In this document: positions 954 to 32,682 of the stretch, piece after piece | Position numbering within the stretch: position 1 is the first letter of the stretch | Layout: every line of letters begins with the position of its first letter | NCBI GenBank assembly: GCA_034505795.1 | Contig: JAPDQM010000001.1 | Location: 6,094 to 70,093 of the forward strand | Reading direction: 5' to 3' | Length of the DNA stretch: 64,000 nt | Source: Candidatus Zhuqueibacterota bacterium | Lineage (GTDB): Bacteria > Zhuqueibacterota > Zhuqueibacteria > Thermofontimicrobiales > Thermofontimicrobiaceae | Program-made: the position numbers and the translations under genes | Notes under the pieces: generated by a model | Told to the model about the DNA's origin: nothing | Databases searched by the model: none | The model's input: only the letters and a program-made list of their open reading frames with translations

Positions 954-1799
954 CTAGATCTTATAGGTCGCACCCTCCGCTGCGGCATCAAGCTTCATGG
1001 GACTTTGCAAGCGATCCCTTTTTTGGCGATATTGCTCGATGATTTGATCGATCTCTTCGTCGGAACGATCGGGCTCGTGATGGAAAAAGATGAGGTGTTT
1101 GGCGTTGGCCTCTAATCCGAGCTGGAACACCTGTTCATAGGATGAATGCCCGAATCCGGTGGTCTCCAGCATTTCTTCTTGCAAATATTGCGCATCATGA
1201 ATCAACACATCCGCATCGCGACAAAAGTCGATAAAATCGTGCCAGGACGTTTGAGCCGAATTGTTGCCAGGCATGAGTTCATTGTCGGTGATGAAAACCA
1301 GCCGTTTGTTCGCCTCTTCTATTCGAAAACCATAAGACGCGCCGGGATGATTGTTTCGAATGAATGACAAATGGGCATTTTTTACCCATTCTTCGAGATG
1401 CTGGATTTCCTCGAACGAAATATTGGCCTTGAGATCATGGAAATTCACTGGAAAATAGCTCGATTCCATCTGGCTGGTTAAAATTTCTTTCAATTTATTG
1501 AAAGCAGGGGGACAACCAAAGATTTTAATCGCTACTTTTTCAGAATAGGCCGGCAAAAAAAAAGGAAATCCCTGAATATGATCCCAGTGCGAATGCGTTA
1601 GGAACAGGTGAATTGCGCCGTTCCGGTGATTCTGGACGATCGAATTTCCCAATTTGCGGATACCTGTGCCGGCATCAAAAATAACCAGTGTACCATCGCT
1701 TAGGGTCAACTCCAAACAGGTTGTATTTCCCCCAAATTTCACGGTGCTCAAGCCTGGAGAAGGAATAGAACCACGGGTGCCCCAAAATCTCAGAATCAA
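954..1799 (-). CDS. MBL-fold metallo-hydrolase
   Basis: Carries the HSHWDH (HxHxDH) zinc-binding motif and later His/Asp residues. TTG start at 1797-1799 is preceded by GAGGAGG at the right spacing. Confidence 0.75.
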   Translation of the reverse strand: MILRFWGTRGSIPSPGLSTVKFGGNTTCLELTLSDGTLVIFDAGTGIRKLGNSIVQNHRNGAIHLFLTHSHWDHIQGFPFFLPAYSEKVAIKIFGCPPAFNKLKEILTSQMESSYFPVNFHDLKANISFEEIQHLEEWVKNAHLSFIRNNHPGASYGFRIEEANKRLVFITDNELMPGNNSAQTSWHDFIDFCRDADVLIHDAQYLQEEMLETTGFGHSSYEQVFQLGLEANAKHLIFFHHEPDRSDEEIDQIIEQYRQKRDRLQSPMKLDAAAEGATYKI

Positions 1800-2742
1800 T
1801 TTCTACACCTCCTCATTGAAACAAATCGATTTGCATGGTGCCTTAAAAAAAATCAGTCACGAATATTTGTTGGTGATAAATAATCTGTTATTGATGAATA
1901 AATGCATACTTCAACACAACTATATCCTTTTGCATCTAATATAAATCAGCTTAACTCCGGATTTGTGTCGAAAATCACAGAACCAGGGATTATAATAATC
2001 AAATCTGGGTTGAATGTCAAATATTTTTTGTCGGATTACAAAATCTTTATATCAAAAAATTAGCGGACAGCCTCGGTTCGAAGACTCAAAAAAAGCAATG
2101 CTTCTTTAATTTTATTTTAGGCTTAACGATGCATATCTTTTCGCCTTGCCAATATCAAATTAGAAACACTATATCATCCCTGGTGAACTTCGTTGTCAGA
2201 CAGAATTTTCATTGCATCTTGTGATGATTATCCATTGATTCGATCTTAGTGCCTGCTTTATGATCTTTTGGATTACTGGCGCCGGCGCAATCTATGATTT
2301 TTTCGCTGAACTGTCAGGCTGGATGTAATCTGGCACCATAGCGCCAGATGGACAACTTTTTGCCAGTATCAAATCGATAATCAAAAGGGATTATTCCTGG
2401 TAGTATTGTCTCCCGCAGCCGCAGCCTTTTCGATACGAGCACTTGAGATCGCCTTGCTGCAGAAGAGGCTGACTGTCGAGGATTCTGTCGGTCCGTGGAG
2501 AAAGAGAATTACATTCATGACAAGCAAATGTTAAAAGCAAGCTGGCAGTGATGGAGAATCAACCACTAAAAAGAAGTCTTAAATCAGCCCAGGAAATGCC
2601 GGGATCGATTAAAGAAAGAATCAGGCGGCGCGTTTTTCGATGCGGCAGCCACATCTTTCGGAACTGCTATGACTTTGATTCCCGTCTCATTTTCCGCTAC
2701 TGGTCTATTAGAGCGTCCCATCATTGAATGCAGGGTAACAGC

Positions 2743-3072
2743 TTAGAAAGCAATGATATGATCTGCGTCGGCCGCCGCCAAATAAAAGTCATTAATACTT
2801 CCCATTTTGGCTTCTTCAAAGATCATGTTATGAATTTTGCGTACTTTCGTTGATTGATTGCAGGCAAATACCGCCAAGGCACCGCTGGCGCAAGCGGCTT
2901 TCAGTTTTTTAAGGATGCGATTACCCTTGATCAAATGATAGATCCCATCATCGACGAAAAATAAGGCGATCAATTTAATTTCCTGGTTGCCTGGTTCGAG
3001 TGCTGCCAGCAAATTATCTTCCAATAACTCAGCCGACAATTCATGAGTGATGATATAAGCAAACTTTTTCAT
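2743..3072 (-). CDS. DsrE/DsrF-like family protein
   Basis: 109 aa with length and conserved Cys placement typical of the DsrE/YchN fold. RBS AAGGAGGG sits upstream on the minus strand (3078-3085). Confidence 0.6.
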   Translation of the reverse strand: MKKFAYIITHELSAELLEDNLLAALEPGNQEIKLIALFFVDDGIYHLIKGNRILKKLKAACASGALAVFACNQSTKVRKIHNMIFEEAKMGSINDFYLAAADADHIIAF

Positions 3073-3854
3073 GATTCCCTCCTTGATTCGTAGAAGCTGT
3101 TTGCCGTGATAAACGCTATGATACTAAAAAAAATTCGATGTTGCTTCATCGTAAGAAAAATATGGCTATCGTTGCGTTATTAAAAAAAACTTTTGAATGA
3201 AAGCCGAATATTTAATGATATGAGGTTGAAAATGTTCCTTCATATAAGATTTTGAAAATAGTTTTCGTAACTTTATTATTGAAAAATGCATTTTTCAAAT
3301 TGCAATCGTTGTTGCATTTAAGCTTGGGATTAGAAACAAGGCGAGCTGAGTGATCGCAGATTTCAAGCTTAAGACTTGGCCTTGCCGCCAGCGAAACTGC
3401 GATCATTGACTCTTGGGCAGCGTGACAAATCATCTTCGGGGCTAGTGGGCATCAAAACGGAGAAGCAATTTCTAACCGAACACGGGGCAACTTAGACCTG
3501 CCATTCCGGATATGATTGTAATGATGGTAATCATGCAATTCGTTGGCCGTTGCCAGTGGCGTAACAGATTGGTCTCTCGGTTGATCAATGGATGAAAAGC
3601 GATGGCAGTTTTTTCGAAATCTGAAAATTAATAAAATTTAATTAATCCTCGATGCTGTGACGATTGCTTCGGTGCAGCATTAAAAAAGCAGATTACCAAT
3701 TCAGAATTTTATTTTGATTCAGATAACTACTTTAATATAAAATCACTAAACGATGTACTACCAAAACAGTGGGGCTTAAAAATTTGAGTTGTAGTGGTCT
3801 CGGGATTGGTCAGCTAAAAATTATTATCAATTTTCAGCCGAAATAATTTTTTTG

Positions 3855-3883
3855 TTGACATTTACGATAAAAATTTGTATCAT
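3855..3883 (+). promoter_or_regulatory. sigma70-type promoter TTGACA-17nt-TATCAT upstream of HU gene
   Basis: Consensus -35 TTGACA at 3855-3860, a 17-nt spacer, and TATCAT at 3878-3883, about 60 nt upstream of the hup start. Confidence 0.5.
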
Positions 3884-3944
3884 TATTCAAATTTTTAAAT
3901 CGCGGATTCATTAAATTTGTACTTTACCATTGAGGAGGCAAAAG

Positions 3945-4220
3945 ATGACGAAAGCAGAGCTTATTGATAAAGTAGCCGCTGTCGAAGGTATCCCTTCAAA
4001 GAAAGTGGCTGGCGAAGCTGTCGACGCAGTATTCGAAGCCGTGAAAAAGGCTTTGGCCAAGGGCGATTCGTTCACGGTGCAGGGCTTTGGGACTTTTAAG
4101 GTCCAGAAATATGCAGCCCGGACTGGGGTGAATCTGCAGACCAAAAAGAAAATCCAGATTCCGGCAACCAAGCGTCCCAAATTCGTTCCCAGCAAAGCTC
4201 TCAAAGATGCTGTGAAGTAA
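3945..4220 (+). CDS. hup: DNA-binding protein HU
   Basis: MTKAELIDKVA...VQGFGTFKV...R.GVN..T...I.IP..K.P.F is the classic HU/IHF signature. GAGGAGG RBS lies 6 nt upstream of the ATG at 3945. The track ORF starts at an in-frame TTG at 3930. Confidence 0.85.
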   Translation: MTKAELIDKVAAVEGIPSKKVAGEAVDAVFEAVKKALAKGDSFTVQGFGTFKVQKYAARTGVNLQTKKKIQIPATKRPKFVPSKALKDAVK

Positions 4221-4331: not shown

Positions 4332-6668
4332 TCAAGAACGATACCACTCGGGGCCAGACATCCGCCACATGTAATTGGGATCAATATAGGGTTCGTCATT
4401 TTCCCGGCCTTGCATCAATTGTAGCCGCTTTTTCAGTAGTTCTCCAAAATTTTCACCGTGAATTAATGGCGTCTCGCCAACCTGAGAAATAACCATGAAA
4501 TCAACCGTTGATGATTCCCAAAGATTCAATAGTATTCGAGTGTTTTCGATTTCATCCAGCACTGCTTCCTTGACCAACTGTCGCCGAGCTTGTTTGATTT
4601 TGTCGTCCGGGTTTTCGAGAAAGCCGTGTACGCCGGCGATCCAGGCTGCGATGTTGCGATGGGTACGAAACCAGCAGCGAAGCGCAATTAGCCGATCGCG
4701 CTGATCGACAAAAAGACGATAGGCACTATCGTCTGTGGATATTTTGGCTAATACCCGATTGTAAATCGCCAGAGCTTGATCGATCAGAGACCACATCTTT
4801 TGATCCATGCGCTGCATCGCTAACAGACAGCGCTCTGGATCGGTGAGGTCAAATAGGACGTCCTTCATCAGGTCCACCATAGCCGGATTGTGCGGCGGCG
4901 AAATCATGAAATCCTCGTAATAGGCGCGGTCAGCTTTCGGAATTGCCTCGATGTTTGGCACCAGCGGTCGCACCCATAATCGCATCCAGGTGTGGCCCCA
5001 TAAAATGTACATCATCACCGGGATTGGAAACACGCGAATCGCTTGATCGGTGAGCCACCATGCTTCGACCAGATCTCCGGCCAATGACGTCCCGGCCCAT
5101 TTTTCAGCTATCTTCCGAATAACATTTTTAATATCGACAGAGGCATCGAGTTGAAATTCACGCCAGACTTCGTGATTGATGGACCAGGGCACCATGGTGG
5201 GCGGATTGATGCCGCCCATGCTGGCAAGGAAGCTGGCGCCTGTGTCGGCCAGTGCTTTCAATTTCTCATAAGTTAGCCATGGGGCTGGCGTGCCCAGCAG
5301 ACAGTCGAAGTTACTGACATTGCCATGTGCATAGACCACATGAGTGCGACAATCCTTCTGCGCTAGCCTATCCATTTCCGGTTTCTCTTTGGGATCGAAG
5401 GAGTTATGATAAATAGTGCCCATAACTTCGGTTACATCGTGGTACAGGGGATGGTGATAAGGGCTATCCCAGCCTTTGCTTAGCAGGGTTGCCACTTCCA
5501 CGTCCAGGCCATTGCCAATCTCGCGATCGATGACGTGGCGTTCTGCGGACAGTGCCTCCAGGCGGCTGATCACCCGAAATTCGGGATTAATTTGTCGGGC
5601 AGTATCTCGGAGCAGTTTCAGGAAGCGCATGATATTTTCGCCAGCACGATTGGCAATTTCTTCGTTGGACTTCCATTCCCGAATCAGATAAGCGCCTCCA
5701 TTCCGCCCGACATAAAGAGTGCTGGTATATTCAAAACCGGCGCCACTGTCATTGGTCCAGATCGAAATGTAGCCAAGCTCTGGTACTTCGTGCATCAATT
5801 TGGCCATCATTTCAGCGTAATGCTCTCGCACTGCCGGATGGGCTAATGTCAGATTGAAGCGAGGTTTGAGGCTACGGAAAGGATGATCGACGCGTGCTCC
5901 GCGAAGCATGGGATAGCGGTTTAGCAATTCATCGGGCACGTTGCGTGGCTCGAAGCACAGAAGCCCCGGCGTTAGCCCATATTTTAGTGCCAAAGCGGCG
6001 TTATTTTTTAGCAGGTTTAAATTCGCCTGGAGATAAACAGATGGATAGATGCCCTGATTCAGCCGGCTGTCGACAAATTGATCCAGTGCCGCACAATAAT
6101 TATAGAAATGGGGATAGACTTCGTCAGGCACGCCCTGCTCGTATGGCATGGGAGTGGCCAGACAATTGACCTCGATATGGGAGTAACCCAGCCGGGCGCA
6201 TTCGCGAATGTATGCTTCGCGATCAAAGTGCCGCGCAGTTCGATATTGGTGAGCAAAGAAGATATCCATCAGCGAGCGTTGCCAGTTGAAGGTAGTTCTG
6301 GCTGACCAGCCATGTTGAAATTGTTGCACATCCAGGTGTTGAAAGTCATCGGCGATACGGCAAAATAAGCCGTAGAGCAAATGTGGTTTTGAGGTGACCA
6401 ATTCGCCATTCCCAGCCTCATCCAATTGAAAAAACATCCAATCATTTTCGCTGCTATCCGGCATGGCGATGGGCGGCCCGAATTTTTCATCGGCAATGGA
6501 AATGCGGAGGACGTGGTTCTTGGCGGCAGTCGGATGATTCAACGGCGTCAATTGGGCTTTGGTCGCGAATTGCCGTTGGATGGCTTCAGCTACGGTTTTT
6601 ACTACCGGTCGACATGTGGTGGCATACTCAATTCTCTCGATTTTTTTCAACGCGTCACTTAAAATCAT
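4332..6668 (-). CDS. large conserved hypothetical protein (778 aa); possible glycoside-hydrolase-like TIM-barrel enzyme, family not recognised
   Basis: Uninterrupted 2.3-kb ORF with normal GC. No signal peptide is obvious. Sequence features such as GYSHIEVN and WTNDSGAGFEY suggest an enzyme-like TIM barrel, but I cannot assign a family. Confidence 0.6.
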   Translation of the reverse strand: MILSDALKKIERIEYATTCRPVVKTVAEAIQRQFATKAQLTPLNHPTAAKNHVLRISIADEKFGPPIAMPDSSENDWMFFQLDEAGNGELVTSKPHLLYGLFCRIADDFQHLDVQQFQHGWSARTTFNWQRSLMDIFFAHQYRTARHFDREAYIRECARLGYSHIEVNCLATPMPYEQGVPDEVYPHFYNYCAALDQFVDSRLNQGIYPSVYLQANLNLLKNNAALALKYGLTPGLLCFEPRNVPDELLNRYPMLRGARVDHPFRSLKPRFNLTLAHPAVREHYAEMMAKLMHEVPELGYISIWTNDSGAGFEYTSTLYVGRNGGAYLIREWKSNEEIANRAGENIMRFLKLLRDTARQINPEFRVISRLEALSAERHVIDREIGNGLDVEVATLLSKGWDSPYHHPLYHDVTEVMGTIYHNSFDPKEKPEMDRLAQKDCRTHVVYAHGNVSNFDCLLGTPAPWLTYEKLKALADTGASFLASMGGINPPTMVPWSINHEVWREFQLDASVDIKNVIRKIAEKWAGTSLAGDLVEAWWLTDQAIRVFPIPVMMYILWGHTWMRLWVRPLVPNIEAIPKADRAYYEDFMISPPHNPAMVDLMKDVLFDLTDPERCLLAMQRMDQKMWSLIDQALAIYNRVLAKISTDDSAYRLFVDQRDRLIALRCWFRTHRNIAAWIAGVHGFLENPDDKIKQARRQLVKEAVLDEIENTRILLNLWESSTVDFMVISQVGETPLIHGENFGELLKKRLQLMQGRENDEPYIDPNYMWRMSGPEWYRS

Positions 6669-21864: not shown

Positions 21865-23415
21865 ATGAGCAAAAAATTATCCAGCGAGTGGTTTCTCATT
21901 CTCGCTCTGGCTTTTTTGAAATTGATTATTCATTTCATAACCAATACCAACTATGAGCTCCATCGGGACGCCTATCTCTATTTAGCCCAGGGCGATCATC
22001 TGGATTGGAGCTTCCTCTCGGTTCCACCCACGACGGCAGTCATTGGCAATATCACCCGATTTTTATTCGGTGATTCAGTGTTTTCCATTCGGCTGTTCCC
22101 AGCCATTATCGGCGCAGTCTCGGTGATCATGATCGGTTTGATCATTAGAAATTTGGGTGGAAAAATATGGGCGATCCTGCTTGGCTGCACTGCTTTTATT
22201 GTGTCCCCTGCCTTCCTGCGAAGCAATACGCTGTTTCAACCCGTAGCATTCGATGCGTTTTATTGGCTGCTCAGCACCTATTTTATTTTGAAATTAATTC
22301 AAACCCAGAATCCGAAATTTTGGATTCATCTGGGCATCACCTGGGGACTGGCATTCTTGGCTAAGTACAATATCGGATTTCTGATCCTGGCTTTTGGTCT
22401 GGCGTTATTATTCACTTCCGATCGAAAGCTGTTCTTGTCAAAATATTTCTTGTATGGTTCATTACTCGGATTGCTTATCGTCTTGCCCAATCTAGTCTGG
22501 CAGTATAACCATAATTTCCCCGTGGTTTATCACATGACCCGCCTCCGCGAGACGCAATTGGCTCATGTCCGAGTCATCGATTTTTTAATGGCACAGGTGC
22601 TGATGAATTTTTCTAATCTATGGGTCTGGCTTTTGGGAATGGCATTTATTCTTTTTTTTAAAGCTGGCAAAAAATATCGAGTGCTGGGCTATACCTATCT
22701 GGCCGTCGTGTTGCTTTATATTTTGTTGAAAGGCAAAGGCTATTATGCCCTGGGAATTTATCCCATTTTATTTGCCTTCGGCGGAGTCGCTATTGAAAAA
22801 TATGCAGAGGGAAAATTGAGCTTTTTGAAGCCCGCTATTTTAGCTTTAATGATTTTGACGACTCTGCCATTGCTTCCGTACAGTCTGCCCGTGCTGCCGC
22901 TGGACAAAATGGTGGTGTACGGTGAAAAATCCAAGCAATTCGGCGGCGAGGGCGCGCTGCGCTGGGAGGATGGTCGCATTTATCCGTTGCCTCAGGATTA
23001 TGCGGACATGACTGGCTGGAAAGAATTGAGCGATATTGTGATCAAGGCTTATCAAAGTTTGAGCGATTCCGATAAATCCGATTGTGTCATCTATGCCGAG
23101 AATTATGGCCAGGCTGGGGCAATCAAATATTATGCTGAAAAATATGGACTGCCAGAGCCAGTCTGTTTCAGCGAGAGCTTCTTGTTCTGGGCGCCCGATA
23201 GCGCCAATTTTAAAACACTGATCTATGTGAACGATGATACGAACGATGTCTCCTACTATTTTACAACCGTGGAATTGGTGGGACGAATTACCGATCCGTA
23301 TGCCCGAGAAAGCGGGCTGCCAGTCTGGCTTTGCAGAACGCCTCGAAATGGGTTTGAACAATTTTATGCTGATAAGGTCAAGGGCATCAAAGATCGATTC
23401 CGCAGAAGTCAATGA
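21865..23415 (+). CDS. ArnT/PMT-family (GT-C) glycosyltransferase
   Basis: Polytopic N-terminal region with the PMT_2-type loop (YLAQGDHLDW) and a C-terminal soluble domain. Confidence 0.7.
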   Translation: MSKKLSSEWFLILALAFLKLIIHFITNTNYELHRDAYLYLAQGDHLDWSFLSVPPTTAVIGNITRFLFGDSVFSIRLFPAIIGAVSVIMIGLIIRNLGGKIWAILLGCTAFIVSPAFLRSNTLFQPVAFDAFYWLLSTYFILKLIQTQNPKFWIHLGITWGLAFLAKYNIGFLILAFGLALLFTSDRKLFLSKYFLYGSLLGLLIVLPNLVWQYNHNFPVVYHMTRLRETQLAHVRVIDFLMAQVLMNFSNLWVWLLGMAFILFFKAGKKYRVLGYTYLAVVLLYILLKGKGYYALGIYPILFAFGGVAIEKYAEGKLSFLKPAILALMILTTLPLLPYSLPVLPLDKMVVYGEKSKQFGGEGALRWEDGRIYPLPQDYADMTGWKELSDIVIKAYQSLSDSDKSDCVIYAENYGQAGAIKYYAEKYGLPEPVCFSESFLFWAPDSANFKTLIYVNDDTNDVSYYFTTVELVGRITDPYARESGLPVWLCRTPRNGFEQFYADKVKGIKDRFRRSQ

Positions 23416-23613
23416 TGTGAAACGCCTATATCGCTACATCTATCAGTGGGTTGTCGATGATATTAGATCGATGTTTTATAACAATGGAATACTGGAATAT
23501 TGGAATTTCATAAGACCTGAATGTCAATCTTCCATCATTCCACCTTTCCATTATTCCTTTTTTGGGGGTAGTCCATCCTATCATAAAACTAAAACCAATG
23601 AGGAGGAGGAAAA

Positions 23614-23967
23614 ATGTTAACCACCAAACGAGTTGTCATTGCCACCATCTGCGGATTTGTGTTTGGCATCGTCTGTATGTTATTAGCCAGCTCAAATCCC
23701 AATGAACCAATCTCAACTGTGATGAAATGGACAATTATCTTCAGCCGCACCATGCTGGGATTCACGATCGGCATCAGCGCTATCCGTTTGAATTGGTGGC
23801 TGCATGGCATTGTTTTAGGAGCAATTGCCAGCCTCCCTATGGCAATCCCGATCATTAACCGCCCAGCTATTGCCATCAGCACGATCGTGATGGGAATTAT
23901 TTATGGCTTCCTGACCGAGCTAATCACCTCGATTTTCTTCAAAGCCAAATCAGCCGCACGATCGTAG
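23614..23967 (+). CDS. small integral membrane protein (4 TM), hypothetical
   Basis: Strong RBS AATGAGGAGGAGGAAAA and four hydrophobic segments. Confidence 0.55.
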   Translation: MLTTKRVVIATICGFVFGIVCMLLASSNPNEPISTVMKWTIIFSRTMLGFTIGISAIRLNWWLHGIVLGAIASLPMAIPIINRPAIAISTIVMGIIYGFLTELITSIFFKAKSAARS

Positions 23968-24233
23968 CTTTGAATGAAGCAAGCCTTCGAGGTTGCTGAA
24001 ACCTCGAAGGTCTCATTCCCGAAAAGTGATGAACGCATATCAACCATAGTTAAAGACAGTTTCTTTATTCAATATTCAATTTTGATATTTTGATTTGAAG
24101 CATAATTGGTATTGATGCATACTCTGAAGAAGCAGAAAATTTGCGCTTGGCATTCAAAAAACTAGTTGCTTTTTTACTTGAAAAGCTTATATTTTAAATA
24201 CAACAAACACTACTTAGTCAGATTAAAAGACGA

Positions 24234-24343
24234 TGTGTCATCCCGAACGGATCCGTCCGCCTACTGGCGGGCGGAGAAGTGAGGAATCTGTATGTATTGA
24301 TGAATTCGGGGTAAACAGATTTCTCTCCGCCGACTGGCGGATC
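24234..24343. repeat. GC-rich structured element: outer inverted repeat GTGTCAT/ATGACAC enclosing two CCGCC-N4-GGCGG hairpins and a 10-bp palindrome ACGGATCCGT
   Basis: Hairpins at 24256-24269 (CCGCCtactGGCGG) and 24317-24330 (CCGCCgactGGCGG). Palindrome at 24246-24255. Outer inverted repeat at 24234-24240 / 24337-24343. The element sits in an otherwise AT-rich intergenic region. Confidence 0.4.
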
Positions 24344-24423
24344 GAAATGACACGCAAGGTGAATTAAGATAATTTGACTAAGTAGTACAAATTGACAAAC
24401 AAATAGTCGACCAAGAGAACAAA

Positions 24424-24528
24424 ATGACCAACCTTTCCCCATCCCCAAGCATGATGACAATGAGGATAATATTATTGCTCCTTGCGCCGTTGAGTTGGCT
24501 TATGTTCTGCTGGAAACCGAAGCAATAA
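24424..24528 (+). CDS. candidate small hydrophobic peptide (34 aa; type-I-toxin-like), speculative
   Basis: ORF MTNLSPSPSMMTMRIILLLLAPLSWLMFCWKPKQ has a hydrophobic helix and a basic C-terminus. It lies about 80 nt downstream of the structured element. The RBS is weak and there are alternative starts at 24451/24460. Confidence 0.2.
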   Translation: MTNLSPSPSMMTMRIILLLLAPLSWLMFCWKPKQ

Positions 24529-24785
24529 TCAGAATTCTTTTGTCAACTAAAATTCCACAATTTTCCCCTTGACATTGTAAAATCGTTTTTATATATTCAC
24601 ACCGAAAAGTGAAATAGTTATGTGAAAAGAAAGAAGTATTATAGTGAGTCGATAATTTTTTCTCAATTGATATCAATAAATCTTCTTTAATTTCTTTTTG
24701 GCAGAGAGTTGGATCAAATAGGCCAATGAACTACCTGTTCCGATACTATGCTTAGAGCATTTCATTTAAGAAAATCGGAGGTAAA

Positions 24786-24986
24786 ATGCGGGCATATAAA
24801 TATATAGTTGACGTAGATCAACACGGACAAATTAATGTCCCAAATATTCCTCAAGTAAAATCATCGAAGGTTGAAGTAATTATACTGCCGCTCCAAATTG
24901 ATGATTATTCCGATTTGATGAACGCATCAGAATCCTCAACTGATTTCTGGAACAACCCAGATGACGAGGTTTGGAATGACGTATAA
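24786..24986 (+). CDS. MazE/AbrB-like antitoxin (putative)
   Basis: 66 aa with an acidic C-terminus. GGAGG RBS is present. It overlaps the downstream MazF-like gene by 11 nt. Confidence 0.55.
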   Translation: MRAYKYIVDVDQHGQINVPNIPQVKSSKVEVIILPLQIDDYSDLMNASESSTDFWNNPDDEVWNDV

Positions 24987-25338
24987 TCAAAGAGACATTG
25001 TGCTTATTCCTATTCCTTTTACTGATTTATCGAGTCATAAAAAACGTCCAGTAATTATTATTTCAAATGACTATTATAACAAAACCAATCCTGACATTGT
25101 TGTAGTGGCGCTAACGTCGAATCTTATTTTTGAAAACAAATATACCATCGATATAGATAATCATAGCCTGGAAAGTGGCGAGCTCCCCACGAAAAGCAGA
25201 ATCAGATGTGACAAAATTTATACCTTATCCAGAAATATCGTTTTAAAAAAATTCTGTAAAGTCAACAATGAGACTTTCAAGTTAATAAAGGATAAAATAT
25301 GCGCACTGATTGATACTGACAATGAAATTTTGTTTTGA
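24976..25338 (+). CDS. MazF/PemK family endoribonuclease toxin
   Basis: N-terminus RDIVLIPIPFTDLSSHKKRPVIIIS matches the MazF/PemK signature (RGDIV.V.FPF....KKRPA.VIS). Low GC. Confidence 0.75.
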   Translation: MTYNQRDIVLIPIPFTDLSSHKKRPVIIISNDYYNKTNPDIVVVALTSNLIFENKYTIDIDNHSLESGELPTKSRIRCDKIYTLSRNIVLKKFCKVNNETFKLIKDKICALIDTDNEILF

Positions 25339-25695
25339 AATTTGATTAGCCTTCAGATTCGATTTCCTTATCAGTTGCCGCTTTTAATGGTAAGCCGCAC
25401 CAGTCCCAAACGATATTTCTAAAAACGACTCTGATTAAATTGATTAACATTTGCTTAAGATAAAGATACTGTCATCGATTTAAGAATGAACTTGGAATGT
25501 TGTTATTAAAAAAAATCATTCAATTTTCAGGCTGATTTTTTGAAAGCGGTTTTATTTTAAAACAATTTGCCCATCCAATTGCTGATTTTGTTAAATGAGT
25601 CTTTGTTAAAAAAATGATCAACAAGGATTTTGTGCCTCAAATAAGAAATGATAATAAATGTCGAATGCTGGCTTTACAAAGAAAAAGGATGAGAC

Positions 25696-26109
25696 ATGAG
25701 ATTCCACACCGAATACCTCTGGTTCAATACCTCTCGCAAACGAGAATTCATCAACATCACTCCTGAAGTTGAAAAAGTGCTGAAAAAAAGCGGCATCCAG
25801 GAAGGCATGATTTTGGTATCAGCCATGCACATTACGGCTGGCGTTTATGTGAATGACGCCGAATCGGGACTGATTCAAGATATTGAGGATTGGCTGCAAA
25901 AGTTAGCTCCCGAAGGGGTGAACTATCGCCATCATCGCACGGGCGAAGTGAATGGCGATGCCCATTTGAAAAATCTGCTCATTGGGCATCAGGTGATCGT
26001 GCCGATCACCAAAGGCGAGCTCGATCTCGGTCCCTGGCAGCAGATTTATTACGCCGAGTTCGATGGCCAGCGCCGCAAACGGGTGATCATCAAAGTGATG
26101 GGAGAATAA
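25696..26109 (+). CDS. YjbQ/UPF0047 family protein (secondary thiamine-phosphate synthase-like)
   Basis: 137 aa with conserved [11 protein letters not shown] and HLK..L.G motifs of UPF0047. Confidence 0.75.
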
Positions 26110-26115
26110 AATAAC

Positions 26116-27861
26116 ATGGCTAAGGTTATTCGAATTGCACTGGCGCAGATCAATGTGACCGTCGGCGATCTGACTGGCAATGAACAGAAAATTAAAGACT
26201 ACCTTCAAAGAGCACGAGATTTTCAGGCTGACCTCATCGCTTTTCCTGAGCTTGCGATTACAGGCTATCCGCCCGAAGATCTATTGCTCCGCCCCCAATT
26301 TGTTCAGGATAATATCAATTGCCTGCAACGGATCGTCCCTGCGACTGAAAATATCACAGCCATTGTGGGATTTGCCAATCGGGAAAAGGATAAATTATAC
26401 AATGCCGCTGCCATTCTTTCGGATGGCAAATTGATCAATATCTATCATAAAATTCATCTGCCCAATTATGGCGTGTTCGATGAAGAACGCTATTTTGAAG
26501 CTGGCGATCGCCCCTTGATTCTGGAGCTGAATGACATCAAAATTGGCATGAGTATTTGTGAGGACATCTGGATCCAAAACAGTGTGATCGAAACCCAGGC
26601 ATTGTCCATTGGCGCTGAAATTCTCCTGAATATTTCTTCCTCGCCCTATCATTCGGGCAAGGTGGAGGAGCGGGAGAATTTGCTCAAACACAATGCCGTG
26701 AACAATCGTGCCATCGTCTGCTATGTCAATCTTGTTGGGGGGCAGGATGAATTGGTGTTCGATGGGAATAGCCTGGTTTTAGATGAGCGGGGTGAAATTT
26801 TAATTCGGGGCCAGCAATTTGAAGAAGATTTGATGGTGTTCGATCTGGATGTCTCCGAGCTACAGAATATCCGTGCCAGAGATGAGTCTTATCAACAGCG
26901 AAAAGCGGATTTCGATCCACCGTTCAAAATTGAGCTGGTCGATCTGCCTGATCACCAGCGCATACCGTTCGATCAAAAGCCGAAGCTGCTGATCACACCA
27001 AATCCAAAACTTGATCCGATAATGGAAATTTATCAAGCATTAGTTTTGGGAACACGGGATTATGTGAGAAAGAATGGATTTAAAAAAGTGGTATTAGGTT
27101 TGAGCGGCGGCATCGATTCGGCGCTGACCGCTGCCATTGCTGTCGATGCGCTGGGATCAGAAAATGTCATCGGCGTGAGCATGCCATCGATTTTTTCGTC
27201 TCAGGGCAGTCTGGATGATGCGGCACAATTGGCCAGCAACTTGAAGATCAAAAATCTGGTGATTCCCATTCAGGACACGTTTGAAGCCTATTTGAAAATG
27301 CTCAAAGAAACGTTTAAAAATTTGCCGTCTGATATTGCCGAAGAAAATATTCAAGCTCGAATTCGGGGGAATATCATTATGGCGCTATCCAACAAGTTCG
27401 GCTGGCTGGCGCTGAGCACTGGCAATAAAAGCGAGATTAGTGTTGGGTATTGCACGCTGTATGGCGACATGGCGGGCGGCTTTGCTGTAATCAAAGACGT
27501 TCCCAAGACTTTGGTTTATCATTTGGCAAATAAATTGAATGAATCACGTGGTCGTGAAATTATCCCGCACAACACGATGATCAAACCGCCATCGGCTGAG
27601 CTGCGTCCGAATCAAAAGGATGAAGACAGCCTGCCGCCATACGATATTTTGGATCCGATTTTGGCTGAGTATGTGGAAAAGGATGCCACCATCGAACAGA
27701 TTGTGGCGCTTGGGTTTGATGAAGCGATCGTGAGAAAAGTGATTCGATTGGTGGATCAAAGCGAGTACAAACGTCGGCAGGGCGCGCCAGGGGTGAAAAT
27801 TACGCCGCGGGCCTTTGGCAAGGATCGCAGGATGCCGATTACGAATCGGTATCGGGTTTGA
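26116..27861 (+). CDS. nadE: glutamine-dependent NAD+ synthetase
   Basis: N-terminal nitrilase/CN-hydrolase domain (IALAQINV, FPEL, C in MSICED) and C-terminal NAD synthetase domain with the SGGIDS P-loop. It starts 7 nt after the yjbQ stop. Confidence 0.9.
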   Translation: MAKVIRIALAQINVTVGDLTGNEQKIKDYLQRARDFQADLIAFPELAITGYPPEDLLLRPQFVQDNINCLQRIVPATENITAIVGFANREKDKLYNAAAILSDGKLINIYHKIHLPNYGVFDEERYFEAGDRPLILELNDIKIGMSICEDIWIQNSVIETQALSIGAEILLNISSSPYHSGKVEERENLLKHNAVNNRAIVCYVNLVGGQDELVFDGNSLVLDERGEILIRGQQFEEDLMVFDLDVSELQNIRARDESYQQRKADFDPPFKIELVDLPDHQRIPFDQKPKLLITPNPKLDPIMEIYQALVLGTRDYVRKNGFKKVVLGLSGGIDSALTAAIAVDALGSENVIGVSMPSIFSSQGSLDDAAQLASNLKIKNLVIPIQDTFEAYLKMLKETFKNLPSDIAEENIQARIRGNIIMALSNKFGWLALSTGNKSEISVGYCTLYGDMAGGFAVIKDVPKTLVYHLANKLNESRGREIIPHNTMIKPPSAELRPNQKDEDSLPPYDILDPILAEYVEKDATIEQIVALGFDEAIVRKVIRLVDQSEYKRRQGAPGVKITPRAFGKDRRMPITNRYRV

Positions 27862-27889
27862 CGGCTTAATAACTATTTGGACCACGGAA

Positions 27890-27918
27890 CCGCCAGTGGG
27901 CGGTCCGCCTTTTGGCGG
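27890..27918. repeat. two adjacent CCGCC-N4-GGCGG palindromes (same family as at 24256 and 24317)
   Basis: CCGCCagtgGGCGG at 27890-27903 and CCGCCttttGGCGG at 27905-27918, immediately downstream of the nadE stop. Confidence 0.5.
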
Positions 27919-27937
27919 AATAGAACGACCACGGAAT

Positions 27938-28041
27938 TTTTTTGGTCTCAGAACTGAAAGGTCTCAGAAATAAAATTCTGAGGCATTTCGTTTCTGAGAC
28001 AAATTAATTTCTGATTATCATTTCTGTGGGACTGCAATTCT
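27938..28041. repeat. array of seven TTCTG(A/T)G(A/G) repeats at about 16-bp spacing (two inverted, five direct)
   Basis: Reverse-orientation copies GGTCTCAGAA at 27938 and 27954. Forward copies TTCTGAGG at 27970, TTCTGAGAC at 27986, TTCTGA at 28003, and TTCTGTGGGA at 28016 and 28032. Spacings are 16, 16, 16, 17, 13 and 16 bp. Confidence 0.45.
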
Positions 28042-28423
28042 GTGGGAGGAATTTTTTGTCTTATTCAGCTCCCAATACAGACCTCTTTTTTTTTCGGTTT
28101 CTATTTCTTTCCGTTTGACGCCCTTTAATCCCGATTCTAACACCTCTTTAATTAAAGTTCAATTGAAGATAAAAAATATGAGTAAAAGTCAAGCTAAAAT
28201 TTTCCCATAAAGTTGCTTGCAAAAATGTTTTGATTTTTGTATATTAAATCCCAGAACATGACCATCATCTGCCAATTAATGGGTAAAGGTTTCATTTGAA
28301 TAATACTCTATTTGGCTAACATAATTATTGAATTTTACCAAAGCGAAAAGCCAGTAGCCAGTAGCGAAGGGCGTAAAAGCATTACGACTAAACTCCCAAT
28401 ATCTCATTAAAAAATCGAATTCT

Positions 28424-28759
28424 ATGAATCCCATTACATTACAACAATGCCAGCACCTCGTCGACGAATGGATCAACACCATCGGCGTGCGCTATTTTTC
28501 CGAATTGACCAATCTGGCGCAATTGGTGGAAGAAGTCGGCGAGGTCGCCCGCATCATGTCCCGCACGTATGGCGACCAGAGCTTCAAAAAATCGGATGAG
28601 GAGAAAAAGCTATCAGAAGAATTGGCTGATGTATTTTTCGTGCTCGTCTGCATTGCCAATCAAACGGGCGTGGATTTGACCGAGGCGTTCTGGCAGGGGA
28701 TGGAAAAACGAACGGAACGGGATCGGGAACGACATCGGAATAACGAGAAATTGAAATAA
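28424..28759 (+). CDS. MazG-like nucleotide pyrophosphohydrolase (small all-alpha NTP-PPase)
   Basis: 111 aa with the EEVGEVARI...EELADVFFVL metal-binding EExxE/ExxD pattern of MazG/YpjD-type NTP pyrophosphatases. Confidence 0.7.
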   Translation: MNPITLQQCQHLVDEWINTIGVRYFSELTNLAQLVEEVGEVARIMSRTYGDQSFKKSDEEKKLSEELADVFFVLVCIANQTGVDLTEAFWQGMEKRTERDRERHRNNEKLK

Positions 28760-28800
28760 TGCAAATTCAGTCACTCGGCTACTCGCAATGTGAATGCCTA

Positions 28801-30258
28801 TTAATCAAAGTAGTTCGTTACATCAAAAATTTCTATACCTTTTCCCTGTAAGCTGATTTTTAAATCATCAGGTGAAACATCTCCGACAAAAACAGCCTTT
28901 CGATAGGTTTTGAAACGCCTTTTTTTTGAAATGATTTCTGATTGCTCCTGAAATTGATTAACGATAGCGCTGGTAATCCTTTTGCTGCTCAATTTGCATT
29001 CCCCGATCAAACATAAATCTCCTTTTTCCTGATAAGCCAGGAGATCGATTTCATTTTGCCCCCGATCCCAATATTTCCCCACAACATCAAAGGGAAACTG
29101 ATTGGGCTTTTCGATACATTGTCGTTGCAGCCAATCTAAAATTAATTTTTCAAATTGAACGCCAAAGAAATTGGGCAAGTCAGCTTTCACTTTGGGGATT
29201 ATTGCATCTCCAGAATAGTTTTCCAGCAGGCTAAAATTTTTATGGACATATCGAAACCAGAAGGTCAGAAAATTATCCTTCAAATAATAGCGATTACTTT
29301 TTCCTTCATCGCTACTGAAGACACTGGATTTTCGTTCAATCAAATCATAATAGTTCAGCAATTCATCCAGGTACTTGCCAATGCTATTCGGTAGAATTCC
29401 AGTGTGGGTAGAAATGTCGTTCCACTGAGTGAAGCCGCTAGCGATTGCCTCTAAAATTGAAAAATACCGGCCATAATTTTTACCAAATTCCTCAATCGTC
29501 AATTCTTTACCTTCATTGAAAAGAAGGCCGTCATTACGAAGTGCCAGACGTTGAATAATCTCAATGATGTCTTTGCCAAATAGATTTTCTCTTTCCATCA
29601 AATAATAATAAAAAGGGATGCCGTTGAACAGGAGCTGCAATTTTAGCTTTTCTCCCTGATTTAATTCAGTCTGTTGAGCAAACAAGCTGTTCATTTCTGC
29701 TACAGAAAAAGGCTTGAGGATCATCTTACCTGTTAAGCGTTTGAACAATGGTTCTTTTTGATCTTCAAATAGCGTATGCATGACGGTTTGCAGGGAGCCG
29801 ATGACAATGATGTGCCCTTTGATTTTATCCTTATACTCATCCCAATATTTTTGAACGATTGAAAAGACAGAAGCATCGACATAAAGAAAATTTTGAAACT
29901 CATCAAAAACAAAGGTATAATTTTTCCGTTCCAGCGTCTGGAAAAGAAATTTGAAAAATCCGTCGAAATTGGCAAATTGCAAGCCTGAAATTTCAGGGAA
30001 TTGTTGCGTCAAGAGCTCGGTGAACTCAACCAGCATGGCTTTGGGCTGTTTGCGAGAGACAAAAAAATAACAATTGGGGATATTATTTTGTTCTAGAAAA
30101 TGCTTGACCAGGGTAGTTTTTCCAATCCGTCTTCTGCCCGTGATCATGGTTAAATAGCCACCCACCGATGCGCGGGCAAGCTCATTGATCTCTCGAAGCC
30201 TGGCGAGCTCTGCTTTTCTTCCAATAAATTCCATTTTGACTGTACCATTTTGTATCAT
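28801..30258 (-). CDS. AAA+ ATPase (archaeal-ATPase/DEXX-box family) with C-terminal DUF234 / PD-(D/E)xK-like nuclease-fold domain
   Basis: N-terminal FIGRKAEL...ITGRRRIGKTTL Walker A and FDEFQ Walker B. The C-terminus carries EIDLLAY...LCLIGECK, which resembles a D-x(n)-E-x-K nuclease motif. GC is about 38%. Alternative start at 30234. Confidence 0.7.
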   Translation of the reverse strand: MIQNGTVKMEFIGRKAELARLREINELARASVGGYLTMITGRRRIGKTTLVKHFLEQNNIPNCYFFVSRKQPKAMLVEFTELLTQQFPEISGLQFANFDGFFKFLFQTLERKNYTFVFDEFQNFLYVDASVFSIVQKYWDEYKDKIKGHIIVIGSLQTVMHTLFEDQKEPLFKRLTGKMILKPFSVAEMNSLFAQQTELNQGEKLKLQLLFNGIPFYYYLMERENLFGKDIIEIIQRLALRNDGLLFNEGKELTIEEFGKNYGRYFSILEAIASGFTQWNDISTHTGILPNSIGKYLDELLNYYDLIERKSSVFSSDEGKSNRYYLKDNFLTFWFRYVHKNFSLLENYSGDAIIPKVKADLPNFFGVQFEKLILDWLQRQCIEKPNQFPFDVVGKYWDRGQNEIDLLAYQEKGDLCLIGECKLSSKRITSAIVNQFQEQSEIISKKRRFKTYRKAVFVGDVSPDDLKISLQGKGIEIFDVTNYFD

Positions 30259-30594
30259 ACCAATTCGTACGATAAATATAATGTTTTTAGATTAAAATGC
30301 AATAAGAATTTTTCAGCTATTCTTATTCTGCAATTATAAGGAGTAATATAGCTGCCAAAGCAGGATAAGGGGAAGAGGGAAAAAATTCAAGCCGAGAACG
30401 AAACCTATCAATCCGGCAAAGGTTAGGTATTTGATTGCTTGCCGTCTGAACAATAAAGGATTCTCTGCGGAGCTGAGGCAGGCATATGTTCAACCGTTGC
30501 GAAGGTTCGGAACCCTCGCAAGGCGAGTTCTTGTGTGAAAATTCATGGACAATCAGCAATTTTTTTGCCCCTTGTTCGACGCCATACTCCATGC

Positions 30595-31539
30595 CTAAAA
30601 CAACCCTACTGATTTTAAAAGAAAAACCCCCAACGATATGGTGAATATTGAGCCCAATGTGGTCATCACAATGATATTCCCGGCCAGGGCGCTGTTACTG
30701 CCCATGGCTTCGGCCATGACAAAGCTGACAATCGCCGAGGGCGTAGCGAATAACAAGAATATCACCCCCAGATCCTCGCCGGTCAGTCCCAGTCGCAACG
30801 CCAGCAAGGTAATAGTAGCGGGGATGACGACGATTTTCAATACCGTTGCGGCAATGGCCAGGCGGGATTCCTTTTTGATGCTTTCAAAATCCAGCGATCC
30901 GCCGATGCCCAACAATGCCAACGGCAGCGTGATGGCGGCCAGACTGTGGACTGTGGTGGTGATGAATTGTGGCAATTCAATGTCAAAATAGGAGAACGGA
31001 ATTGCTGCCGCTGTGGCCAGGATCAAGGGATTGGTGATGATCTCGAAAAGAATTTTCTTCCAGCCTAGCTTTTTCTCATGATGCAGCGGGGCGGTAAGGG
31101 CGACGATGGCCAGCACATTGTAAAGCGGCATGACAAAGGCCAACAAGATGGCCGCCTTGCCGAGCGCCCGGGTGCCAAACAGATTGGCTACCAGCGCAAA
31201 GCCGATGATGGCAAAATTGCTCCGAAAACTCCCCTGGATAAATGCCCCGCGGTCGCGACCACTGGAAGATAAAATTGAGGCCAGAAGCCAGCTCAGCGCA
31301 AAAAAGAAACATACGCTGGCATAGACGAAGCCTATTTCTTTCAGGCTGAACATGATTTGCAGGTCGGTTCGAGAGAGACTTTCAAAGACTAACGCCGGAG
31401 CTGCAAGCGAAAAGACAATTTTGGATGATAGGTTGATAAAGTTGCCGTTGATCAGCCCTCTTTTTTTTAGCCACCAACCGATGAAGACAATTAAAAATAC
31501 CGGGGCGACACCGTTGATTGAAAAGATCAAATTTTCCAT
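30595..31539 (-). CDS. AEC (auxin efflux carrier) family transporter
   Basis: 10-TM duplicated-repeat permease with AEC-type conserved loops. Confidence 0.75.
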   Translation of the reverse strand: MENLIFSINGVAPVFLIVFIGWWLKKRGLINGNFINLSSKIVFSLAAPALVFESLSRTDLQIMFSLKEIGFVYASVCFFFALSWLLASILSSSGRDRGAFIQGSFRSNFAIIGFALVANLFGTRALGKAAILLAFVMPLYNVLAIVALTAPLHHEKKLGWKKILFEIITNPLILATAAAIPFSYFDIELPQFITTTVHSLAAITLPLALLGIGGSLDFESIKKESRLAIAATVLKIVVIPATITLLALRLGLTGEDLGVIFLLFATPSAIVSFVMAEAMGSNSALAGNIIVMTTLGSIFTISLGVFLLKSVGLF

Positions 31540-31563: not shown

Positions 31564-32682
31564 TTACAAAATCGCCTTTTTCTTTTCGAGATAATACAGG
31601 TAATTTTCAAAGGTGACATCCGATGGCAGGCGATGATCCACCATCGGGATGTAGCCTCCCTGTTCGACGAGTGGCGCCAGCCGCGATAGTTCAAGGTCGA
31701 TAGCCGCCTTGCCTTTGATCAATTCCATTTTGTTCACGCCACCCATCAGCAGAAGATCCCGGCCATAGATTTGCCGCAATTTAATGGGATCGGTATGCAG
31801 CGCTTCGATAGGAAACATGCAATTGATACCTGCTTCCAGCCAGCCGGGAATCAATTCATAAATGCAGCCATCGCAATCCAGGATATTGAGATCAACACCA
31901 TATTTTTTCAGTGCTCGAGTGATTCGTTGATAGCGAGGCACCATTAATTCCTGAAACAATCGAGGCGAGATGAGTGGCCCTTTGTTGTAGCACATGTCTT
32001 CCCACCACCAGGCCATGTCGACAGTCACACCGGGCAGCGCTTTGTCGATGAGCGACAGCGTCAAATCGGTCAGATGTTCCATCATCTCTTCCACCCAATC
32101 CCGATCGGTCATAATGGCAATGGAGATGTTTTCTACACCCATCCAGTTGCGCAACACACCGTAAAGCGAACCGGCGTCGAATCGAATCGGCATTCCCTGT
32201 TGATGCGCTTGCTGCACTGCTTGTTGGATATCGCCGATGCGGGTGGCCAGAGCGCTGTTTAAGCGTTCTTCTTTATAGCGCTCCCAATCGGCTCGATTTT
32301 CGATGCCATATTTGAGGTAGCGAGGAATGCTCTCGCCGGTTTTCGGCACCTCGCAGATAATCCCCTCCTCGTTCTGAATGACCCTGTATTTCTCTGATTC
32401 TTCCAGGATACGATACTCAAACCGAGGGAATAGAACATTTTTCACCGGGAGCCAGGGTATGATTTCGACACCCTCCAGCCCCAGATATCGTTCCACATCT
32501 TCATTTGTTCTGATTGTCAACGGCAAACCTTGATGATGCCATTTTTCAATGGTCTCATCCCAATAACCGAATTCCATGTTGGGAATGCAATCGGGCTGTT
32601 GCCAATGCATGACTTTCTGAAAGCGCTCTCGAGTCGTCAAGTTCGTCTCCAATTTTATCGCGGATGTTTTGTTCCCGGGCAA
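31564..32682 (-). CDS. uroporphyrinogen decarboxylase (URO-D)-like family protein
   Basis: URO-D fold motifs (RERF..V..., DHRLPSD). It lies 25 nt upstream of the AEC gene on the same strand. Confidence 0.65.
   Translation of the reverse strand: MPGNKTSAIKLETNLTTRERFQKVMHWQQPDCIPNMEFGYWDETIEKWHHQGLPLTIRTNEDVERYLGLEGVEIIPWLPVKNVLFPRFEYRILEESEKYRVIQNEEGIICEVPKTGESIPRYLKYGIENRADWERYKEERLNSALATRIGDIQQAVQQAHQQGMPIRFDAGSLYGVLRNWMGVENISIAIMTDRDWVEEMMEHLTDLTLSLIDKALPGVTVDMAWWWEDMCYNKGPLISPRLFQELMVPRYQRITRALKKYGVDLNILDCDGCIYELIPGWLEAGINCMFPIEALHTDPIKLRQIYGRDLLLMGGVNKMELIKGKAAIDLELSRLAPLVEQGGYIPMVDHRLPSDVTFENYLYYLEKKKAIL

Follow-up and report, generated by a model that had tools for sequence, protein, structure and literature searches.

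The window analysed here is a stretch of 64,000 nucleotides (nt) from contig JAPDQM010000001.1 of a Candidatus Zhuqueibacterota bacterium, and the region of interest occupies its positions 23968 to 30594 (coordinates refer to the window unless they are preceded by the designation of another locus, such as L006). A preliminary description of this DNA had proposed that a toxin-antitoxin (TA) pair, a small MazG-like NTP pyrophosphohydrolase, an ATPase fused to a nuclease-like domain and several repeats make up one combined, undescribed stress or anti-phage system. Our analysis instead indicates that the region is probably an ordinary mosaic of independent insertions, made of selfish or defence cassettes, in a conserved housekeeping block, and nothing ties its parts together functionally. 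The block is made up of the genes for a PMT_2 glycosyltransferase, a 117-amino-acid (aa) membrane protein, YjbQ, NadE, a YpjD-like MazG, an AEC transporter and a URO-D-like protein, and its spacers would have independently taken up accessory DNA. A first insertion of ~1.4-1.7 kilobases (kb), between the membrane-protein gene and yjbQ, would comprise a palindromic element similar to miniature inverted-repeat transposable elements (MITEs) and a two-gene type II TA cassette. A second one would be a 30-nt double GC hairpin that entered the already repeat-rich spacer between nadE and mazG. The third one, of ~1.8 kb and located between mazG and the AEC gene, would have brought a single self-contained gene coding for an ATPase with a PD-(D/E)xK domain, a family listed in PADLOC as PDC-S27.

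The genes were mapped using open reading frames (ORFs) and Pfam matches. The core genes are encoded on the plus strand up to mazG (PMT_2, 21865-23415; membrane protein, 23614-23967; yjbQ of the UPF0047 family, 25696-26109, Pfam E = 3e-40; the glutamine-dependent nadE with its NAD_synthase and CN_hydrolase domains, 26116-27861; mazG, 28424-28759), and on the minus strand beyond it (AEC transporter, 30595-31539; URO-D-like gene, 31564-32682). In two more assemblies of the same species the locus is 99.7-99.9% identical and the arrangement is unchanged. Scans with NadE recovered seven related loci (NadE identity of 77-86%), and their core order is PMT_2, membrane protein, yjbQ, nadE and mazG, with AEC-URO-D coming next in some loci and a GT2 gene in others. 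The adjacency of yjbQ and nadE is kept in the seven loci (77-96% aa identity), and the composition of both genes (GC of 47-49%; GC at third codon positions, GC3, of 0.587 for yjbQ and 0.510 for nadE) is like that of the rest of the genome. Judging from this conserved order, yjbQ and nadE are core housekeeping genes that lie outside any insertion.

The comparison with these relatives bears out the earlier suggestion that two low-GC insertions flank the housekeeping yjbQ-nadE pair. On the left side, the alignment with L005 is made up of two blocks (23575-24011 and 25696-27889) that are separated by only ~36 nt in L005, so positions 24012-25695 are extra DNA in the window; the distance from the membrane-protein gene to yjbQ is accordingly ~36 nt in L005 versus 1.68 kb in the window. 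Since the homology of the L006 spacer with the window stops at 24193 and that of L001 restarts at 25614, the left insertion can be placed at ~24.2-25.6 kb. On the right side, the gap between mazG and the AEC gene measures 50 nt in L001, 200 nt in L008 and 1.83 kb in the window; because L001 and L008 join mazG directly to the AEC gene, positions 28764-30590, with the ATPase-DUF234 gene, are also extra. The L005 and L001/L008 junctions are short and clean, and they contain no remnants of the cassettes. The spacers of L006 carry other cargo, namely a two-gene cassette with a weak PIN match between nadE and mazG and a 74-aa ORF upstream of yjbQ. This is not the picture of a classical genomic or defence island: the ORF and Pfam analyses detected no integrase or transposase genes between 23.9 and 30.6 kb, the repeat search found no flanking direct repeats, the two cassettes are split by core genes and there is a single PADLOC match.

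The MazG-like gene, which the preliminary description had included in the islet, turned out to belong to the conserved block. It codes for a 111-aa protein (PF03819, E = 2.7e-14) that matches over its full length the PDB structure 2gta, B. subtilis YpjD (E = 8e-20), and its composition is normal (GC 49.1%, GC3 0.616). It follows nadE in five relatives (L001 and L005-L008) with 87-93% aa identity, the gap between both genes being 24 nt in L008, and mazG is probably co-transcribed with nadE. PADLOC yielded no match for MazG, and the PHROGs search returned only generic MazF and MazG matches. Its synteny in five relatives, its GC3, the lack of a PADLOC match and YpjD as its best PDB match all differ from what is expected of a defence-associated MazG. 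The protein shares with the small YpjD-type MazG pyrophosphohydrolases of B. subtilis its length, the full-length 2gta match, the EExxE...ExxD metal-binding pattern and the chromosomal housekeeping context; there is no notable difference from them, and it is not of the phage or defence-island type. As far as synteny and composition can tell, mazG is a core gene and not a member of the islet, and its product would be a house-cleaning NTP pyrophosphatase, probably co-expressed with nadE.

These observations bear directly on the possibility that the TA pair, the MazG-like NTPase and the ATPase-nuclease are the components of one undescribed multi-component stress or anti-phage system. The genes are found within 6.6 kb, the ATPase gene matches a PADLOC candidate, and all three families (MazF, MazG and ATPase-nuclease) have members in defence contexts elsewhere. 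Nevertheless, MazG is kept beside nadE in five relatives that have no ATPase gene there, and the two of them with a visible upstream spacer (L005 and L006) do not have the TA pair either. MazG has host-like GC and no PADLOC match, and the components are split by 3.4 kb of core genes and encoded on different strands. The co-occurrence of MazG-like and ATPase-DUF234 genes, which had been put forward as a check, was not found: the ATPase homologues have unrelated neighbours in eight contexts and never adjoin MazG, and the components did not co-occur in the three contexts of the TA pair. The cassettes occur alone in unrelated contexts, and a common system is largely refuted and seems extremely unlikely. 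The value of the analysis is thus mainly corrective, as the exotic-looking combination would be the chance neighbourhood of a core MazG, a cassette of the MazEF family and a candidate defence gene that had already been catalogued.

The mosaic of independent insertions is also supported by the wider distribution of each cassette. The TA cassette is made up of a 66-aa antitoxin gene (24786-24986, plus strand), recognized as an ORF with conserved pairing with PemK, and of a PemK/MazF toxin gene (24961-25338, plus strand), the start of which is overlapped by the antitoxin gene in the same orientation. The toxin matches PF02452 with 65 bits for a cut-off of 23.1 (E = 8.4e-18; profile positions 2-108 of 109). 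Its longest ORF corresponds to 125 aa and the NCBI start at 24976 to 120 aa; the protein is a 100% match to an NCBI protein annotated as a KSB1 PemK/MazF toxin. When aligned to S. aureus MazF, it retains the RPV and (L/I)T(S/G) motifs. No Pfam model was retrieved with the 66-aa antitoxin, and its only NCBIfam match is a weak N-terminal one to the RelN antitoxin (E = 0.003). It has relatives in 70 representative clusters at E<=1e-3. PADLOC had no match for PemK, the antitoxin, YjbQ or the membrane protein. Both TA genes are GC-poor (32.0% for the toxin and 37.3% for the antitoxin, with a GC3 of 0.34). The pair was found in L015, L016, L017 and L019, and three contexts other than that of the window hold it as a pair with 75-77% DNA identity; in these unrelated contexts, a 66-aa ORF directly precedes the PemK homologue, and the 66-aa proteins are 71-79% identical. 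The cassette thus resembles the MazEF/PemIK type II TA systems in its small upstream antitoxin overlapping a toxin of the PemK/MazF fold, in a Pfam score well above threshold, in the motifs shared with S. aureus MazF and in being a mobile, GC-poor pair in varied contexts. It differs from them in its antitoxin, for which no antitoxin model of Pfam or NCBIfam scores above threshold and which represents a small uncharacterised family. By analogy with these systems, MazF would cleave single-stranded RNA and a labile 66-aa antitoxin would hold it inactive; because of this restraint, the pair would persist by addiction, and it may abort growth under stress or infection.

Two observations on related TA genes can be added. 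The 66-aa antitoxin gene is not among the recorded genes of the same-species NCBI assembly GCA_034505535.1 (L018:5522-6529), and it is recorded on Logan/JGI contigs. Other TA-like genes are found within ~2 kb of homologues of both cassettes: in L015 (1161-1777), the MazEF homologue has a PIN_3 and RHH_1 pair nearby, and in L014 (11262-11938) the ATPase homologue is close to a HEPN gene that has a 97-aa partner. This suggests small accessory clusters in those genomes.

The third insertion contains an ATPase_2/AAA_14 gene fused to DUF234 (28801-30258, minus strand; Pfam E = 2.6e-20). Its ORF codes for 485 aa, the NCBI start (30234, Met9) gives 477 aa, and the protein is 100% identical to an NCBI protein from a metagenome-assembled genome of candidate division KSB1. 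It had been presented as part of an undescribed system, yet the PADLOC check retrieved a full-length match to the candidate PDC-S27 (PDLC04985, E = 8.9e-63, residues 9-483 versus profile positions 4-479 of 484; PDLC04984, E = 2.6e-36), so the ATPase-nuclease is not new. In an alignment of 50 homologues, the Walker A (G33, R35, G38, K39), the Walker B (D111, E112) and the D397...E412-x-K414 residues are invariant, the first two motifs reading GRRRIGKT and hhhhDE. The AlphaFold model has a high predicted local distance difference test score (pLDDT of 92.9). With the N-terminal two-thirds of this model, Foldseek retrieved the archaeal ATPases 2qen (E = 8e-15) and 2fna, followed by the origin recognition complex (ORC)/Cdc6 proteins, plant nucleotide-binding leucine-rich repeat receptors (NLRs) and Avs4. 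The predicted architecture is a P-loop ATPase similar to Orc/Cdc6 and to the signal transduction ATPases with numerous domains (STAND), followed by a helical/winged-helix region and a C-terminal DUF234 restriction-endonuclease-like PD-(D/E)xK domain. DUF234 had been placed in the PD-(D/E)xK superfamily (PMC3424549), and the fusion of an ATPase to PD-(D/E)xK is how PDC-S27 has been defined, a candidate that is widespread, with 3,503 archaeal and 4,562 bacterial instances (PMC12988326). Thus, the PemK, MazG and ATPase-PD-(D/E)xK domain calls of the preliminary description were all correct according to Pfam, the motif alignment and Foldseek.

The protein shares with PDC-S27 (the COG1672-type 'archaeal ATPase' PF01637 plus DUF234) the full-length match to the hidden Markov model, the association of a P-loop ATPase and a PD-(D/E)xK domain in one stand-alone gene, and the invariant Walker A/B and D...ExK residues. 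It departs from it in that the copy of the window sits between housekeeping genes and outside any recognised defence island. A second comparison can be made with the STAND or Orc/Cdc6-like immune sensors that have nuclease effectors, such as Avs: the core superimposes on ORC/Cdc6, plant NLRs and Avs4, and the nuclease is part of the same polypeptide. However, the protein of the window is much smaller (485 aa), it has no repeat-type sensor domain, its nuclease is C-terminal and the structures that match it best, 2qen and 2fna, are those of archaeal ATPases that are themselves uncharacterised. Based on these similarities, the ATPase-nuclease most likely would act alone as an NTP-switched sensor, in which the Orc/Cdc6/STAND-like ATPase and the helical DNA-binding region would license the protein's own restriction-endonuclease-like domain to cut nucleic acid. 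The high-confidence model and the invariant catalytic residues could guide the first biochemical test of this very common and uncharacterised family, and the locus offers a clean natural example of the presence and absence of PDC-S27 in a poorly studied phylum.

The genomic contexts of this gene are as varied as those of the TA pair. Its homologues with 66-84% aa identity have as neighbours a Tricorn protease, ferredoxin/C_GCAxxG genes, TrkA, TumE, a racemase and a beta-propeller gene. The only DNA common to the window and these loci is 28803-30321, that is, the gene and ~60 nt upstream. More distant ATPase-DUF234 homologues (<=34% identity) are present on 164 plasmids, and the plasmid neighbourhoods that were inspected contain a zeta toxin, a DUF3990 protein, a Fic-like DUF4172 protein, a WYL protein and an integrase.

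Several points weigh against the interpretation of the region as a mosaic of selfish or defence cassettes gained by insertion. The polarity of the events (gain here versus loss in the relatives) depends on two informative relatives per junction, and the insertions are not accompanied by a recombinase, a transposase, a tRNA gene or any clear target-site duplication. PDC-S27 is a computational candidate for phage defence; when a representative was assayed in E. coli B against T4, T5 and T7, it was not among the four protective candidates reported (10.1101/2024.09.26.614923). Similarly, the toxicity of MazF and its neutralisation by the 66-aa protein would follow from family, motifs and folds. 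The first of these points leaves room for an alternative scenario, in which the cassettes were ancestral at this locus and were deleted in the sampled relatives, their low GC being a bias specific to their families. This scenario would be congruent with the small number of informative relatives, with the fact that both families have, in every location, less GC than the DNA around them and with the ~80% DNA identity of the ATPase homologues, which are about as diverged as core genes. Yet, the short, clean junctions of L005 and L001/L008 have kept no trace of a cassette, the homologues with 66-84% identity are found in unrelated loci and the same spacers of L006 carry different cargo, so ancestral cassettes appear quite unlikely and the independent gain of both remains the favored interpretation.

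The composition of the region had drawn attention to it in the first place, as GC was thought to be ~48% and uniform everywhere else in the window. Two troughs are indeed real in 1-kb windows, one at 23.75-26.0 kb (minimum of 0.329) and the other at 28.0-30.5 kb (0.375-0.39), but the window has a GC content of 46.9% (1-kb mean of 0.469, standard deviation of 0.039) and a third trough, at 1.25-4.0 kb, also falls below 0.40, so the two troughs are not unique. This third segment (1251-4000) is gene-poor, with 1-kb values as low as 0.361, and contains a 109-aa ORF (2743-3072, minus strand) and an HU-like gene (3930-4220, plus strand). The claim that the intergenic DNA is below 35% GC holds for one of the four spacers (25339-25695, 30.8%) but not for the other three (23968-24785, 36.3%; 27862-28423, 35.9%; 30259-30594, 40.8%). 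Among the 33 ORFs of at least 150 aa over which GC3 z-scores were computed, the ATPase-DUF234 gene has the lowest value (GC 38.3%, GC3 0.407, z = -3.0). The low GC is a property of the two cassettes and of the AT-rich spacers. At every locus examined, the GC content of both cassettes is lower than that of the adjoining DNA by 5-14 points; since these families are GC-poor everywhere they are found, low GC alone does not date their acquisition.

The GC-rich structured element noticed in the preliminary description is present upstream of the TA cassette (24209-24386, plus strand), where it was delimited by its inverted repeats and its fold. It is 178 nt long and has terminal inverted repeats of 17 nt (ACTACTTAGTCAGATTA / TAATTTGACTAAGTAGT) that are complementary at 16 of 17 positions. 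Its interior contains a GTGTCAT/ATGACAC stem, a three-way junction and two nested CCGCC-N4-GGCGG hairpins (24257-24270 and 24327-24340). The predicted RNA fold reaches -81.3 kcal/mol, with a z-score of -8.9 on the plus strand and -7.8 on the minus strand. Other copies were found: L011 and L012 have one with the same ends and inner stems, 10 nt 3' of the ATPase homologue and at contig ends; L008 has a 143-nt element (4636-4778) with the same terminal inverted repeats and an unrelated hairpin core of C/G runs (fold z = -6.9), which occupies the spacer between URO-D and AEC that is 24 nt long in the window; and L013 has a single element end. The element has terminal inverted repeats and does not code for protein, and copies or ends of it are present in L008, L011/L012 and L013 but not at all comparable sites; it behaves as a dispersed MITE-like repeat. 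Three independent short-read contigs break off inside it (the 3' ends of L011 and L012 and the 5' end of L019), which fits a repeated or hairpin-forming sequence that disrupts assembly. A scan of viral contigs with the element end found nothing, and a full-text literature search for its GTCAT(T/C)CCGA motif returned only irrelevant primer matches.

The element has in common with MITEs and with repetitive extragenic palindromic (REP) sequences and bacterial interspersed mosaic elements (BIMEs) a non-coding length of 140-180 nt, 17-nt terminal inverted repeats, a strong fold, an intergenic location, its presence or absence at orthologous sites and the disruption of assemblies; short GC-rich hairpins paired just after a stop codon, as in REP doublets, are also present in the region. 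Compared with MITEs and REPs, the copy number in the sequence available is low (one element and four hairpins in 64 kb), there is no clear target-site duplication (none was convincing at the flanks in the window or in L008), no partner transposase or REP-associated tyrosine transposase was identified there, and the cores differ completely between copies that retain the same ends. Other identities were considered and rejected. A retron msr/msd has no reverse transcriptase nearby to support it, and the ends of IS200/IS605 elements can be discarded as there is no TnpA/TnpB nearby. An integron attC site is not compatible with ends (ACTACTTAGTCAGATTA / TAATTTGACTAAGTAGT) without AAC/GTT cores (RYYYAAC...GTTRRRY), with single cassettes and with the lack of an integrase.

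The strong fold could also be explained if positions 24209-24386 were a structured non-coding RNA, for instance the folded leader at the 5' end of an mRNA for a type-I-like toxin, the 34-aa ORF located downstream (24424-24528, plus strand). This mini-ORF (MTNLSPSPSMMTMRIILLLLAPLSWLMFCWKPKQ) combines a hydrophobic core with a basic tail, and it had been proposed as a type-I-like toxin candidate; the hydrophobic ORF does exist but nothing supports a toxin role. The RNA hypothesis could further rely on the better fold of the plus strand, on a promoter-like TTGCTT-N17-TATATT sequence that ends 15 nt upstream and is partly conserved in L006, and on a minus-strand sigma-70-like site matching 11 of 12 positions (24666-24638), which faces the mini-ORF from the opposite side and could give an antisense RNA. 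Nevertheless, Rfam had no match for the element, the hairpins or the repeat array (at gathering thresholds and at E<=1), no conserved counterpart of the mini-ORF was found in the loci retrieved from outside the species and the promoter-like matches of the region are not above those expected from shuffles (20 versus 16.3). DNA-level repeats account better for the terminal inverted repeats, for a fold that forms on either strand, for contigs that break off within the element and for copies whose cores are swapped, which makes a structured RNA very unlikely.

A different role would be that of a recombination or capture site bringing promoter-poor cassettes into the spacers, in the manner of integron attC sites or of MITE-mediated capture. 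This role could extend to a non-coding motif of ~100 nt detected with nhmmer (30376-30483, minus strand), which is located in the stretch that separates the stop codon of AEC from the ATPase gene, at a distance of 119-226 nt upstream of the start of the latter, and which reappears just downstream of ATPase homologues in L024 (1962-2068, E = 4.7e-9) and L022 (3315-3364, E = 0.018). This motif could be another dispersed 3'-end repeat or the sign of a circular permutation of the cassette. Its upstream position here and downstream position in L024/L022, the proximity of the element to the TA cassette (~400 nt) and to the ATPase homologue of L011/L012 (10 nt), its conserved ends with exchangeable cores as in attC sites, and the fact that the DNA common to the cassette copies barely exceeds the coding sequence could all be understood as traces of such a capture. 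Yet, among the six other distinct ATPase contexts, the element accompanies the cassette only in L011/L012 and is missing from five (it does not travel with the cassette in L013, L014 or L022-L024), and it is also missing from the three other TA contexts (L015-L017); neither RYYYAAC/GTTRRRY core sites nor an integrase nor a cassette array is present; and the L008 element lies between two core genes without any cassette. Because of this last copy, we regard the element as an independent dispersed repeat, and a capture site seems quite unlikely. We give equally little credence to the idea that the element and the 30376-30483 motif mark a recombinase-independent or unknown route by which TA and single-gene defence cassettes enter the spacers of the KSB1 group, a route that would be attC-like in function and unrelated in sequence.

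The remaining repeats are small insertions or local arrays, and together with the MITE-like palindrome they may interest students of intergenic repeats in uncultured lineages. The CCGCC-N4-GGCGG palindromes of the preliminary description were confirmed: the window has four exact copies, at 24257, 24327, 27890 and 27905, all of them in the region studied, and a scan allowing one mismatch gave 7 matches for 1.65 expected from shuffles, none of which reached 7. Nevertheless, they are not the boundaries of a mobile segment. The pair in the nadE-mazG spacer (27889-27918, without strand; located by motif scan) starts 28 nt after the nadE stop codon; in alignments with L001 and L005, it stands out as a clean insertion of 30 nt. 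Similarly, the first hairpin of the MITE-like element corresponds to 27 nt inserted with respect to the copy of L012. The motif was not found in 17 loci (~240 kb, mostly relatives). According to these alignments, the hairpins are small, species-specific insertions of 27-30 nt. Their role as borders of a mobile yjbQ-nadE segment is ruled out by the core nature of these two genes in all relatives.

Downstream of the tandem hairpins lies a TTCTG(A/T)G repeat cluster (27947-28047, without strand), found by motif and inverted-repeat searches. It had been described as a periodic array of seven copies; six strict copies and a degenerate one do occur, 13-17 nt apart, but two of them are inverted, so that the cluster combines a palindrome with direct repeats and goes undetected by Tandem Repeats Finder, as a mixed-orientation repeat. 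The two inverted copies come first, followed by four strict and one degenerate direct copies, and the first four copies form a long hairpin with arms at 27934-27969 and 27976-28011 (fold z = -6.7). The same modules are present in the nadE-mazG spacer of L001, L005 and L006 with varying copy number, and they are absent in L007, L008 and L010. In L001 (2370-2930), this spacer contains at least three tandem units of ~158 nt, made up of TTCTGAG/TTCTGTGGG modules and a GC-rich 'gaccgcgaattgcgcg...ccttacggcttaa' module; they are interrupted by a run of N, which corresponds to a repeat that the assembler did not resolve. L007 has tandem 'ccttttaaaagccttacggcttaactccttg' units at the same position. 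In L006, the minus-strand cassette of this spacer (L006:11531-13802) codes for a 154-aa protein with the weak PIN match (E = 8.5e-4) and for a 101-aa protein. It is flanked by direct repeats of ~460 nt with 87.7% identity, in which the TTCTG repeat array and the final 151 nt of nadE are contained, and the displaced 3' copy of nadE is 90.7% identical to the nadE of the window versus 89.4% to L006's own copy.

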